Shown here in pieces: positions 41,464 through 49,864 of a DNA stretch of 64,000 nucleotides (position 1 is the first letter of the stretch; each line of letters opens with the position of its first letter). The notes beneath the pieces were generated by a model that had not been told where the DNA came from, made no database searches, and worked only from the letters and a program-made list of their open reading frames with translations. Position numbers and translations under genes: made by a program. The stretch is from Candidatus Heimdallarchaeum endolithica (lineage in GTDB: Archaea > Asgardarchaeota > Heimdallarchaeia > Heimdallarchaeales > Heimdallarchaeaceae), in NCBI GenBank assembly GCA_021513715.1, contig CP084167.1:1856001-1920000 (forward strand), given 5' to 3'.

Positions 41464-42906
41464 TTATTTCTTGATACCCAAGAAACCAGCTAATGCAGGA
41501 ACTGTTTCTGCTACTTGCTCACTGGCAAAAATCTCATAATATTGCTTCAAGATACCGACAGTAAGCAAGATACCCGTACCCGTCCCTAATGCGCCTAGAA
41601 AGTCAGCAAAGGCTGCTAATACACCTATAAAGAATCCGCCTAACCAAGCTGCAGTAGGAATATAGCGATCCAAGTATTTTTCGACAATACGAGGGTTACG
41701 ACGAAAACCAGGGATTTGCATATCAGCATCAAGTAATTGCTTGGCAACATTACGAGAACTCATACCTGCAGTATCAATCCAAATCCTAGAAAAGATACCA
41801 CAGAGGATAACCATCAAAATAAAGTACGTAACAGCTTGCCAAGGTTGTTCAACTATTTGCTCCGGACCATATGGGGCAGTAGTAAAGGAAGCTAAACCAT
41901 TGATTGGCCGGCTTTGCTGTGTATCACCTATAGTATCCCATTCACCAAAAAAGGTGACCAAGAATCCACGAATGCCAGGATCGTTGGAATCCCATTTATT
42001 ATCAAGAAGGTTACTGATAAAGTAAATATTGGCAAATAGGGCACTAACTAAAATAACTGGAATGTTAGAGGTATAGAGAAATTTAATAGGATAACGAGCA
42101 GGCATCTTATATTGACTGTGTTGAACAGGAATCTCGATGCGAATACCATCAACATACATAACCATAGCAAAAACAACAATGGTAGCTACCAATCCAATAA
42201 TGTCAGGAGTACGACCAGTACGAGTGATAGATTGCATAACAGTATTTTCATCACGAATAATGCTCTGGAAAAAGGCGATAACAGCGCCACGAGCTAAACC
42301 ATACTGATCAGGGGTGAGATTGAACATACCATCAACAATGTTAAAACTAACACTAGTGGCAATAAAGAGAGAAATACCACTACCTAAACCATAACCCTTC
42401 TGGATGACTTCATCCATCATCATGATAACAAAACCAGCAGCAACAAGCTGAACTAAAAAAAGAGTCTTTTGAGCGAAAACTAAATCCTCACCATAAGCAC
42501 CACCAAGAATATAAGCAAGAGCCTCAAAAAGAAGCATAAGAATAGACATAATCTTTTGAGCACCAGTGTACAAAGCACGCTCTTCAGGGTTACTAAAATC
42601 AACCTTGATAATTTGGGAACCAACGAGGAGTTGAAAAATTAAGCCAGCAGTAACGATAGGTCCAATACCTAGTTCTGCTAATGTTCCTCTTTGCGATGCT
42701 AATATCGCTCTCATTGCATAGAATGGGTCTGTTCCTTGTGTTTCTTTAAATCCCACTAGTGGTATGTTTAGCATTGCCAGATATAGTATCAATATTCCGA
42801 ATGTCCAAAATAATTTTGCTTTAAACGACAGTTTTTTATCTGGTCTTTTTATCTCGAATGTAAAACGTTGAAATGGTTTGAACATAGTTAGGAATTTACT
42901 TGCCAC
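41464..42906 (-). CDS. secY: Protein translocase SecY/Sec61alpha
   Basis: GTLAELGIGPIVTAG, GYGLGSGISLFIA, YPIKFLYTSNIPVIL, IPGFR, GTGILL. Confidence 0.97.
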   Translation of the reverse strand: MASKFLTMFKPFQRFTFEIKRPDKKLSFKAKLFWTFGILILYLAMLNIPLVGFKETQGTDPFYAMRAILASQRGTLAELGIGPIVTAGLIFQLLVGSQIIKVDFSNPEERALYTGAQKIMSILMLLFEALAYILGGAYGEDLVFAQKTLFLVQLVAAGFVIMMMDEVIQKGYGLGSGISLFIATSVSFNIVDGMFNLTPDQYGLARGAVIAFFQSIIRDENTVMQSITRTGRTPDIIGLVATIVVFAMVMYVDGIRIEIPVQHSQYKMPARYPIKFLYTSNIPVILVSALFANIYFISNLLDNKWDSNDPGIRGFLVTFFGEWDTIGDTQQSRPINGLASFTTAPYGPEQIVEQPWQAVTYFILMVILCGIFSRIWIDTAGMSSRNVAKQLLDADMQIPGFRRNPRIVEKYLDRYIPTAAWLGGFFIGVLAAFADFLGALGTGTGILLTVGILKQYYEIFASEQVAETVPALAGFLGIKK

Positions 42907-43741
42907 TTTTTACTCCTCTTTTTTTCTATTTCTTTCTCTGTCTTTTCTGAATTCTCGTACCTTTAAAAGCCTTTTCTCTTTGTTCTTATTTTTTACTTTT
43001 TTTTTATTTTTTCTTCATTTCTATTTTTATCGTCTCCCATATTCTCATGTACATTTTGATTGTTAGATTTATTATTTTTTCATTTTTCTTCATTTTCATG
43101 TCTTGTATGATACTTATTTTTTTAGATTTTATAGCTCCTGGGTTGTTTACATAGTCACTTGCATCAAGGTAATCATCTTTCATTCCAAAGATGTTATCCA
43201 GAACAATATAGTAATTTTTTACAAATTCTAGTGCTTTTTCATATCCCATTAGGCTGTATTGGTTCATCGGGTATATTACTTTTTCTTCTTCTGTAAACGC
43301 CTTTTTCCATTCTCTGACATTTTTCCTTGCATTATCTTGAGGTAATCGATAGAATCTTGCTGCTGGTTTTTCTTCTATTGCTTGTGCTGTACATTGTATT
43401 TTGAACACAATTATATTTTCTGTTCCTAAATCGTTTATAGTTAGTTTTAATTTTTCATTTTCAGTTTCTGCTGCTTTTACGTATGCTAGATTTATTATTG
43501 CATTCAACATTTCTATTGTTATTCCTTTTTCTTCGTTTGTCTTTCCGAATATACTATCTGGTGAGAACGAATATCTTTTAAGGTTATATAATTTTGAAAA
43601 ATCTACTTTTATCAATCCTTTTTCTTCTATTATTTCTTTTTCCATTTTTTTTATTATATTCAGTATATTTTTTTCTATTTCTTCGTATTCGAAGTTAAAT
43701 CCTGGTATATCTTTTATTTTATTTTTCAGATCTTTAGTTGT
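42670..43741 (-). repeat. Diverged direct repeat, copy A (large-gene 3' end + spacer + secY codons 1-79)
   Basis: Homologous to 45376-46448; identity is highest at the secY junction and falls with distance. Confidence 0.9.
43004..43741 (-). pseudogene. 5'-truncated paralog of the C-terminus of the 45726..49509 large protein
   Basis: Shares LAYVKAAE, IVFKIQC, IEEKPAAR, MNQYSLMGY, LDNIFG, YLDAS, LTIKMYMRIW. Homology continues upstream of the ATG at 43645 (TTKDLK..KDIPGF) and stops abruptly near 43741. Confidence 0.8.
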
Positions 43742-44027
43742 TGAAATATTAAAAAAATTAAAAGAAATTGAATAACTTTCTCAAAGTTGATTTATAATCA
43801 CAATATATGACTTTTAAAAAAAGAATATAAAAAAATCCAATAATAACAGGGGCTCCAAACAGTGAAAAAAAAGTGTAGAATATGTAAATACTTAGATGAA
43901 ATCTATAACAAAAATAAAAATATTTCAAAAAAGGTAGAAGTTAGTTGGAAAACACTATTTAAGCGATAATGCTAACACCCTATTTCTTTAATCAAAAATT
44001 ATTTAAAAAAAAGCAGTGATAATATAA

Positions 44028-45281
44028 TTGATAATGACAATACAGATAATTGGAAAAACAAAATACGGTACAACAGTTATTAAGAAAATAGATACAGAAA
44101 CAAAGGAAGTCTCTTTGAAAGATGAGGGGTTGCAATATATCGATTTAACACCATTAGAAAAATGTACTAATCTAACTACATTGTCTTTAAATGCCAATCC
44201 GTTACGTGAGGTTGATTTACCGTCATTAGAGAAATGTACAAGTCTAACCACATTGAATTTGAATGCAAATTTGTTACAAGAGATAAATTTAACACCATTA
44301 GAAAAATGTACTAATCTAACCAAAGTGTATTTGGGGGATAATCTGTTACAAGAGGTTGATTTATCGCCCCTAGAAAAATGTGCAAAAATAGAATTTTTGG
44401 ATTTGAGGGAGAATCAATTAAAAAAATTAGATTTAAGGTCATTAAAAAAATGTACTAATCTAACAAAAGTGGATTTGGCTATAAATCAGTTACAAGAGAT
44501 ATATTTACCGTTATTAGAAAAATGTACAAAACTAACTGAATTGGATTTAAGCAGCAATCAGTTAGAAAATATCGACTTAAGTCCATTAGAAAAATGTACA
44601 AAACTAACTGAATTGGATTTAAGCAGCAATCAGTTAGAAAATATCGACTTAAGTCCATTAGAAAAATGTACAAAACTAACTGAATTATATTTAAGCAGCA
44701 ATCAGTTAGAAAATATCGACTTAAGTCCATTAGAAAAATGTACAAAACTAACTAAATTATATTTAAGCAGCAATCAGTTAGAAAATATCGACTTAAGTCC
44801 ATTAGAAAAATGTACAAAACTAACTGAATTATATTTAAGCAGCAATCAGTTAGAAAATATCGACTTAAGTCCATTAGAAAAATGTACAAAACTAACTAAA
44901 TTGAATTTAAGCAACAATCAGTTAGAAAATATCGACTTAAGTCCATTAGAAAAATGTACAAAACTAACTAAATTATATTTAAGCAACAATCAGTTAGAAA
45001 ATATCGACTTATGTCCATTAGAAAAATGTACAAAACTAACTGAATTGGATTTAAGCAACAATCAGTTACTATGTTTTATCGATTTAACACCATTAGAAAA
45101 ATGTACAAAACTAACTAAATTGGATTTAAGCAGCAATATTTTAGAAGATATCGATTTAACACCATTAGAAAAATGTACAAAACTAACAAGATTGTATTTA
45201 GATGGAAATCAGTTACATGAATTGGATTTAACACCATTAAAAGACCTTATTGAAAAAGATTTATTGTTCATTTATCGATAA
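44028..45281 (+). CDS. Leucine-rich repeat protein, about 15 x 24-aa repeats
   Basis: LEKCTKLTxLxLSxNQLENIDLSP repeats; no signal peptide seen. Confidence 0.92.
   Translation: MIMTIQIIGKTKYGTTVIKKIDTETKEVSLKDEGLQYIDLTPLEKCTNLTTLSLNANPLREVDLPSLEKCTSLTTLNLNANLLQEINLTPLEKCTNLTKVYLGDNLLQEVDLSPLEKCAKIEFLDLRENQLKKLDLRSLKKCTNLTKVDLAINQLQEIYLPLLEKCTKLTELDLSSNQLENIDLSPLEKCTKLTELDLSSNQLENIDLSPLEKCTKLTELYLSSNQLENIDLSPLEKCTKLTKLYLSSNQLENIDLSPLEKCTKLTELYLSSNQLENIDLSPLEKCTKLTKLNLSNNQLENIDLSPLEKCTKLTKLYLSNNQLENIDLCPLEKCTKLTELDLSNNQLLCFIDLTPLEKCTKLTKLDLSSNILEDIDLTPLEKCTKLTRLYLDGNQLHELDLTPLKDLIEKDLLFIYR
44510..45240 (+). repeat. 72-bp intragenic tandem repeat array (about 10 copies, 7 nearly identical)
   Basis: ttagaaaaatgtacaaaactaact recurs at 44514, 44586, 44658 and onward. 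Confidence 0.92.
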
Positions 45282-45375
45282 TGAAGGTACGAGATTCAGA
45301 GAGGAAAAAGAAACAGTGTGGAAACGATAACAAGAGAGGATATAAACACTTAAACAATTAATGATTAGTAAAAAA

Positions 45376-49400: not shown

Positions 49401-49509
49401 TCCTAATAAGAAAAATTTCTTCTCTATTTATTGTGTTCAATGCATTCATTTTTGCAGTAATTTCATAATTTTTGCGTAATAGTAACTCACTCGATTCGAT
49501 TTTTTTCAC
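45726..49509 (-). pseudogene. Very large unknown protein (~1260 aa) split by one extra base in the T7 run at 49201-49207; joins ORFs 49180..49509 and 45726..49082
   Basis: Removing one A gives ...GKWIKKKIHKFFEQDLDIRFLDWLKEKGYSESYLVSIFDSREEAPLSYIAK..., continuous with the 1118-aa ORF. Contains GIDLII...FSESK, a possible PD-(D/E)XK motif. Confidence 0.7.
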
Positions 49510-49544
49510 CTTTCAAGTAATTTTATTTTATTGCCGTTTTATCT

Positions 49545-49836
49545 TTTTGTTAGAGAAAAGACTGTGAGATTTTTCTCTTTTTTGTAATTTCATACTGTTT
49601 CATAACTTAAGGAAAAGTATTTCAGCAAAGAATATTCTATTAAACATATAATTCCACTTGTGATAGTCTCTGTGGTTAATATAAAGTTTAAATTATTTTT
49701 TAGAAAGCCAATAATTATTAATTAAACTGTGTTTTTGAAACCATTTTTTAAGCACAAAACTAACAACAATATTCAAATTTTAACTTTTCTATAAGGTTTG
49801 TTCATCTGTTGAATGAACAGTCTTTTTCTAACAAAA
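49545..49836. repeat. ~20-bp imperfect inverted repeat bracketing ~290 bp of non-coding DNA
   Basis: TTTTGTTAGAGAAAAGACTGT (49545-49565) vs ACAGTCTTTTTCTAACAAAA (49817-49836); one indel. Confidence 0.55.
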
Positions 49837-49864
49837 TAAGTTAAATAAAAAGTAAAAAAAGATT

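Follow-up and report, generated by a model that had tools for sequence, protein, structure and literature searches.

A mobile, aloposon-related element very probably replaces the 5′ end of secY in Heimdallarchaeum and has left the stacked remains of two landings

The secY gene of Candidatus Heimdallarchaeum endolithica lies in a 64-kb stretch of its genome (contig CP084167.1, positions 1,856,001 to 1,920,000; hereafter the window), separated from rpl15 by two diverged modules that each end in a copy of the start of secY. Based on sequence comparisons with related genomes and metagenomic contigs, we propose with high confidence that a mobile element related to the aloposons replaces the 5′ end of secY, and that this locus would hold the stacked remains of two such landings. 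Its target within secY would be the conserved motif GTLAELGI.

For H. endolithica PR6 (3.32 Mb) and H. aukensis PM71 (3.08 Mb), Nanopore and Illumina reads have yielded circular genomes (PMC8813620). Below, G000 denotes the H. endolithica genome that contains the window and G001 the complete H. aukensis genome. L076 and L078 are contigs of the metagenome-assembled genome (MAG) GCA_054383835.1 and L077 is a contig of MAG GCA_054384295.1; L073 is an H. endolithica-type contig, L080 a contig of another H. aukensis MAG, and X1 and X4 are public runs. P0005 is a 5,335-aa giant protein from Heimdallarchaeaceae MAGs. Copy A and element A refer to the rpl15-proximal module, copy B and element B to the module joined to secY.

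Results

Two diverged copies of the secY start lie between rpl15 and secY

The full secY open reading frame (ORF) spans 42906–41464 of the window and that of the truncated giant-gene paralog 43645–43004; the locus is composed as follows.

49865–50317, minus strand: rpl15, host gene and left flank, 97% identical to its G001 ortholog
49820–49864, minus strand: residual host intergenic DNA with a T-rich tract, collinear with empty sites up to 49820
45726–49819, minus strand: remnant of element A, the last ~1,370 codons of an Ephialtes-type giant gene
45613–45690, minus strand: secY promoter and leader copy of element A, with a TATA-like TTTTAAA and a GAGGAG ribosome-binding site (RBS), aligning to empty-site intergenic DNA from AC/AAAGAG
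45376–45612, minus strand: displaced secY codons 1–79 of element A, read as an 84-aa ORF to 45358
45282–45375, no strand: left end of element B (begins TTTTT-TACTAATC) and 3′ flank of the leucine-rich repeat (LRR) gene
44028–45281, plus strand: LRR (internalin-like) cargo gene, 417 aa, 72-bp repeats, Pfam LRR_4 at 6e-66
43859–43960, plus strand: 3′ remnant of a Cas4-like PD-(D/E)XK nuclease gene, matching a 305-aa gene (E 1.6e-4 to 8e-7)
43809–43868, minus strand: non-coding motif common to aloposon and HeimV2 ends (blastn, 80–84% over 41–60 nt)
43736–43775, plus strand: 3′ remnant of the PadR-like winged helix-turn-helix (wHTH) gene of the aloposon four-gene module
43004–43742, minus strand: remnant of element B, the last ~245 codons of an Ephialtes-type giant gene
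42907–42983, minus strand: secY promoter and leader of element B with RBS, now ahead of secY, identical to L076
42634–42906, minus strand: element-supplied secY codons 1–91 (N-terminal helix, first transmembrane helix TM1, plug, start of TM2b)
42623–42633, minus strand: likely right junction, 11-bp common stretch CAACTCCTCGT, codons 92–95
41464–42622, minus strand: host part of secY, codons ~96–480, which follows the species tree

A first-pass annotation made from the window alone had listed rpl15, a large gene, secY codons 1–79, the LRR gene, a truncated paralog of the large gene and secY, and all of these stand in that order where it had put them; it missed that the giant-gene homology of element A continues to 49820/49819 and that gene remnants of aloposon type occupy 43736–43960. 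The two modules form a direct repeat (45376–46449 against 42670–43742) with 77.6% nucleotide identity over 1,091 columns, which is unevenly distributed, the giant-gene part being 74% identical (57–61% in amino acids, close to the 55–60% previously estimated by eye) and the secY part 94%. Copies A and B of SecY differ by exactly six residues, all in codons 7–24, and by four synonymous changes in codons 26–79, the same counts as before. The element-supplied part contains TM1, as annotated, and in addition the plug, which Pfam places at residues 40–74. The archaeal consensus suggests a promoter role for the copied secY leader; a scan for bacterial promoters gave results no better than chance.

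The two parts of secY have different histories

The start of secY in the window does not share the history of the rest of the gene. In a tree of codons 1–77, copy A, copy B and L076 group together (99/98), separate from every empty-site allele, whereas codons 96–480 place the window with its own species (100/100), so that the two separate trees, proposed earlier as a check, are discordant. The element-supplied codons 1–91 are 1 nt away from L076 and 28 nt away from the conspecific empty allele L073; copy B differs from that allele at 28 of 273 positions in the carried part and at 30 of 1155 elsewhere (p=3e-7).

The possibility that copy A is the native stub was rejected: its SecY protein is identical to that of empty alleles, but its DNA is of element type, grouping with B at 12 informative sites against 1 and 2 for the other groupings. 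Because copy A clusters with B and L076 in DNA, it is best read as the first element's allele displaced by B, which agrees with the annotated second arrival. On these sequences, element A very probably landed first and its allele was then displaced by B, and both elements lost their interiors; the window indeed keeps only giant-gene tails and 3′ gene remnants, in line with the internal deletions annotated earlier. The interior of element B appears to have been lost via a 7-bp microhomology, and the deletion in A appears to have removed the native stub and promoter as well.

As a separate observation, the empty alleles of the two species (L073 and G001) differ at 1 of 75 nt in codons 1–25, and their secY leaders are mosaics of A and B types, together hinting at earlier exchanges.

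The modules are deleted relatives of aloposons

Wu et al. (2022, PMC8813620) defined aloposons by tandem giant genes of 3,000–6,000 aa (Otus and Ephialtes), a tRNA site downstream, and four conserved genes upstream, one of them for a MinD/ParA ATPase. The tails of A and B both derive from an Ephialtes-type giant protein and are 33% identical to the 5,326-aa HeimV2 giant of G000. Tail A is 65% identical to P0005; tail B is 98–99% identical to P0005 residues 5091–5335, and its DNA is 99.3% identical to L076, which contains the intact 5,335-aa Ephialtes-type gene of which the window has only tails. The link to giant-gene mobile elements of Heimdallarchaeia, previously a guess, is thus borne out by these tails and by the aloposon gene remnants at 43736–43960.

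Since the LRR gene, the Cas4-like gene, the end motif, the wHTH gene and the giant tail stand in order, module B can be read as a collinear, internally deleted element of aloposon type. The wHTH remnant retains 11 C-terminal residues identical to the HeimV2 gene and is all that the window keeps of the four-gene module, ParA belonging to the deleted or unread part. The end motif has four further copies in G000, and the intact Cas4-like gene, which occurs at the ends of aloposons, matches the PDDEXK_1 and cas4 profiles. By comparison with L076, the wHTH gene is joined to the giant gene at the 7-bp microhomology AACAACT (43736–43742), and the same joint occurs in run X1.

Remnant A is the variable tail behind the hydrophobic segment of the giant protein. 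It has an open ORF at 45726–49082, a frameshift near 49190 and stops in 49510–49819, its giant-gene homology running on, broken, to the left junction at 49820/49819. The A-side deletion junction (AAAAAGAC/TGTTC) has lost both the native promoter and the native secY start that had been displaced; at 49820 it shows a weak microhomology with the frame of the giant gene, and an X1 contig departs at 49820 too. An insertion of element A upstream of the promoter with TG...CA ends was rejected, as the junction lies inside the giant-gene frame. A relative of remnant A (~87% identical) was found in run X4, and diverged relatives of both modules occur in public runs; a joint of 49122 to 43919 is present in three runs.

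No tRNA lies near the locus and the gene downstream of the giant gene is secY; because the published definition requires a tRNA target, we file the element as aloposon-related and not as a member. Related-locus searches of metagenome, genome and viral contigs and a search of long proteins gave no further full elements, and among 47 genomes of the order G000 was the only one with a convincing match. L107 turned out to be the tRNA-Phe aloposon. CRISPR spacers gave no true match, the apparent ones being the LRR gene's own repeats. The full element would probably measure 35–45 kb, with the LRR and Cas4-like genes at its left, the wHTH/ParA module and giant genes following, and the secY promoter with codons 1 to ~92 at its right.

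Other sites in these genomes also hold remnants. Internally deleted aloposon remnants lie at a tRNA-Gly pair (L055, G000 2102165–2103956; full element at G001 2019457–2056867) and at tRNA-Pro (G000 1204882–1205304). A ~90-bp motif occurs three times downstream of the 16S rRNA 3′ end (L032/L054; G000 2245443, 2207455 and 2204699), which suggests tandem stacking at the HeimV2 site too. In L070 (328–7150), an Ephialtes-type gene fragment is joined to the 3′ end of rps2, which is convergent and comes from another species; this contig is either chimeric or marks a further site in a ribosomal operon.

Empty and occupied sites indicate movement between species

Sites without any giant gene occur in both species (L073 of H. 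endolithica type; G001 and L080 of H. aukensis), providing the empty sites that had been called for; their rpl15–secY gaps measure 118–119 bp (118 bp in G001). Occupied sites occur in relatives as well. In L076, an intact giant gene is followed after 97 bp by a B-type secY start, so that the earlier idea of an element family carrying the promoter, RBS and 5′ end of secY is matched by the same foreign start behind a full-length giant gene. The rpl15 contig of the same MAG, L078, breaks off at secY nt 233; its identity to H. aukensis is 99.9%. In L077, the native secY start behind rpl15 stops at nt 233 (codon 78), and then come the window-type element end, identical at 329 of 330 nt, and the same LRR gene at the same position. 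These contigs supply the element parts in relatives that had been sought.

Because both element ends recur in these independent assemblies (L076 and L077), the structure is not an assembly artefact. That MAG contigs break at nt 233 and begin at codon 92 is as expected of a mixed population of empty and occupied sites. Both host MAGs match H. aukensis at 99.9% identity and the window at ~92%. The element ends are 99.3–99.7% identical between hosts whose flanks are ~91–92% identical, and the intact giant gene in the H. aukensis-type MAG is 99% identical to copy B. Because H. aukensis-type hosts carry such near-identical ends, the element appears to have crossed the species boundary between H. 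endolithica and H. aukensis recently.

Insertion at secY is accompanied by loss of target DNA in H. aukensis hosts

Copy B is identical in the window and L076 through codon 91, and codons 80–91 differ from empty alleles at 7–9 of 36 nt. At the right junction the last element-specific base is in codon 91 and the first host-specific base in codon 95 (one informative site); MAG contig P0035 begins at Q92. On the left, the stub ends at nt 233 in L077 and at nt 237 plus five T in the window, the junctions of the two hosts being 9 nt apart. In the H. aukensis hosts, native nt 234–273 (~40 bases) are absent from both junctions, as judged from separate contigs with one informative site. Read together, these sequences indicate that insertion leaves a stub ending at codon 78–79, replaces ~40 target bases, and puts the carried promoter and 5′ allele in frame with host codon ~92–95.

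The first-pass annotation had placed recombination at codon 79/80. The stub end at codons 78–79 agrees with this, but the carried sequence extends past GAACTA/GGT to codon 91 or beyond. A single reciprocal exchange at codon 79/80 is unlikely, because the carried allele reaches codon 91, the stubs stop at 78–79 and the junctions lie 9 nt apart. Integrative elements that replace 5′ ends have a core shared by attL and attR and lose no target; at secY in the H. aukensis hosts there is no such core and target DNA is lost. No recombinase had been noticed in the window, and no PF00589 or PF00239 gene was found there or in any complete aloposon of G000 and G001. In a separate observation, the whole G001 genome gave no PF00589 (tyrosine recombinase) match, and thus no XerA with that query.

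A parallel that is contiguous in complete genomes is the tRNA-Asn aloposon of G000 (L056/L057; 2352059–2352249 and 2390390–2390610). The native tRNA is cut at the start of the T-arm with ~30 bp lost, and the element carries, in inverted orientation and starting 33 bp after the stop codon of the giant gene, a complete tRNA-Asn together with ~100 bp of its upstream DNA; this carried tRNA is recoded by compensatory T-stem and acceptor changes. The tRNA-Phe aloposon likewise has a resident tRNA and promoter with just 87% identity to the copy at the empty site, and 48 bp of upstream sequence recur at the other end.

The giant protein combines a conserved body with a variable tail

Between the B-type giant and the HeimV2 giant the N-terminal body is mostly 81–100% identical (68% in one window of the alignment) and the tail 29–44%; between the tRNA-Asn and tRNA-Gly elements the values are 90–100% and 47–78%. 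The variable region comprises ~1,300–1,500 residues after the hydrophobic segment. Because the tail varies together with the target, beside which it is encoded, the tail is a candidate target-specificity module. It gave no match in Pfam, PHROGs, NCBIfam, PDB sequences or the Atlas. Four fold searches with a model of pLDDT 67 that left out residues ~3950–4930 also gave none, which is not evidence of a new fold. A 378-aa aloposon protein folded poorly (pLDDT 37) and had no Atlas match. The last ~310 tail residues also occur as a stand-alone gene at 35% identity (L069:3234–4172, a JGI contig).

An A-to-T skew switch marks the target

Among 1,486 ORFs, secY ranks first for a switch from A to T at four-fold sites, located at codon 78–86: codons 1–79 have 24 A and 2 T, codons 80–240 have 3 A and 63 T, and the T-ending bias of the host part fades over ~1.5 kb. 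Empty alleles have the switch as well; other genera and a species at 89% identity lack it. Genome-wide, 10 of the 20 top switches lie within 1 kb of a tRNA (0.48 expected), and switches also cluster at giant-gene ends. That they fade within 1–4 kb suggests that the switches may stem from repeated local break repair and not from a replichore boundary. Mimicry of a tRNA T-arm by secY codons 94–97 was rejected, since other copies of the motif lack a skew switch.

Switches also lie in conserved motifs of five genes that by eye resemble those for IleRS, an EF-2-type GTPase, HypD, PPDK and a peptide ABC permease (G000 1825717–1825888, 2600045–2600138, 2487528–2487618, 2171872–2171989 and 2969868–2969961). 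A present element or stub was not found at any of them, and they are candidate former hot sites.

Discussion

Based on these findings, we tentatively propose that the element inserts by cut-and-replace without a dedicated recombinase. A nuclease of the element (the Cas4-like protein, or else the giant's variable tail, which is linked to the target) would break the target near codon 78–80; the element would then be copied or joined in by repair through short homologies on both sides, with codons 80–91 co-converted, and repeated cycles of breakage and repair could leave the local A-to-T skew centred on the site. An unlikely but far-reaching extension is that aloposons in general are recombinase-free elements that cut, replace and rescue, carrying a recoded rescue copy on which the host comes to depend. 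A nuclease, be it the Cas4-like protein or the giant membrane protein's swappable tail, would then destroy a conserved site in an essential gene (tRNA or secY), perhaps also in cells nearby, and the A-to-T switches would map all such hot sites, including those inside the IleRS- and EF-2-like genes.

Two other routes for the same element are each improbable in our judgement. An unrecognised integrase could act conservatively at a core in codons 92–95, the stub being trimmed to 78–79 afterwards, as in the "fragment damage" of some tRNA-targeting islands, acting as addiction. Such a route fits the 11-bp common stretch at the right junction, the 9-nt difference between the stubs and the variable-length damage of displaced fragments described for phage-inducible chromosomal islands (PICIs; PMC10111431), but neither host has a trace of the core at the left junction, complete aloposons have no integrase, and the inverted tRNA-Asn replacement is not the product of one reciprocal crossover. 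Alternatively, exchange could have been reciprocal at codon 79/80 (GAACTA/GGT), with codons 80–91 an old host flank that moved later along with the element, through homologous recombination of the whole occupied locus between strains. All seven B-specific changes in codons 80–91 are to T, like the host-side bias, the B allele switches its skew at codon 80, and the window stub ends exactly at codon 79; against this, the H. aukensis hosts are native to nt 233 and again by codon 95, leaving ~23 and ~11 bp for the crossovers, junctions vary between hosts and no integrase was found.

Readings without a secY-targeting element fare worse. The modules could be orphan C-terminal cassettes of a polymorphic contact-dependent toxin, with the start of secY as a hitch-hiking flank or homology arm. 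The giant protein does have a conserved body with a swappable C-terminal region, and remnant A begins near the start of the variable tail. Yet the order of parts in module B is that of a whole aloposon, giant genes are missing from empty sites, L076 already suggests a full element at secY with a single tail, no toxin fold was found, and in place of an immunity-like ORF directly downstream the secY promoter follows ~20–35 bp after the giant stop; we consider this reading very improbable. Ordinary tandem duplication with divergence, or mis-assembly, would explain the ~1.07-kb direct repeat, but we give it next to no weight: divergence is uneven between the giant (74%) and secY (94%) parts, both junctions recur in another species, empty sites exist, copy B is near-identical to a copy from that species, and L073, L076 and L077 already refute it.

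Several points count against our proposal. No single molecule that was read spans a full element at secY, the left and right ends coming from separate contigs, and 10 of the 33 kb of the L076 contig were read, so an integrase could lie in the rest. The search for excision junctions, suggested earlier, yielded no trustworthy circle or excision junction among the public-run contigs, contigs being the only material. In L072 and in an X1 contig, a giant-gene end resembling that of B is followed by a secY of entirely native type; either the carried allele is not always recoded or L072 is chimeric. The loss of target DNA has been shown in the H. aukensis hosts and is putative in PR6; the last 400 aa of the tail match no known nuclease or recombinase fold; and any cause of the secY skew switch is putative.

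With aloposons and HeimV2, which were described without any integrase or transposase (PMC8813620), the secY element has in common a giant gene of Ephialtes type (overall identity to the giant of HeimV2, 73%), the wHTH, Cas4-like and end-motif remnants, a target directly behind the giant gene and movement between the two species, while its target is an essential protein-coding gene in place of a tRNA. The text and supplements of that paper contain no match to secY, and neither replacement sequences carried by the elements nor a loss of target DNA is mentioned there; its Extended Data Fig. 7a shows truncated fragments of giant genes in a region without a name, which may be the secY locus. In the literature searched, no element at secY is described. 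SXT/R391 integrative and conjugative elements at prfC and dusA islands (10.1101/2021.06.18.448947; PMC4482086) likewise appear to supply a new promoter together with a new N-terminus, but they use a tyrosine integrase, a short shared core (a 21-bp imperfect repeat for dusA) and excised circles. At secY no integrase was found, ~40 bp of an essential target is replaced and ~350 bp is carried; the chemistry is probably different. Tandem SXT/R391 arrays are known. The icd and tRNA islands and the fragment damage of PICIs (PMC10111431) resemble the secY element in attP target sequences of up to ~250 bp and variable-length deletions in displaced fragments, but they are integrase-driven, usually replace 3′ ends, and the damage lies within a tRNA fragment that keeps the att site.

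Homing endonucleases and the synthetic Cleave-and-Rescue system (PMC6442612) share a site in a highly conserved motif, a tract resembling co-conversion and a linked recoded copy of an essential gene. The secY element encodes a Cas4-like nuclease, predicted from profile matches, and its site is recoded at 7–9 of 36 nt in B and L076, as is the T-arm in the carried tRNA-Asn, L072 being native-type. Unlike those systems, its cutting and resistance are hypothetical, the L072 allele is native-type and the cargo measures tens of kb.

The locus offers defined junctions, alleles with and without the element, and a nuclease candidate, and so makes aloposon mobility testable. The promoter, TM1 and plug of a Heimdallarchaeote SecY/Sec61-alpha channel would be supplied and exchanged by a mobile element, and secY, a core marker gene, is a chimera with two histories. 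Where the native start is deleted, as in the window, the host would depend on element-derived DNA. The skew switch may offer a sequence-only way to locate such hot sites.

Among the neighbouring genes, a family B DNA polymerase with an intein lies directly downstream of secY (window 37331–41341), and adk does not come after secY here. In a sister genus, several genomes have a second divergent secY of ~41% identity (for example L035:16869–18248 and L045:5214–6224), and secY is often inverted or relocated relative to rpl15.

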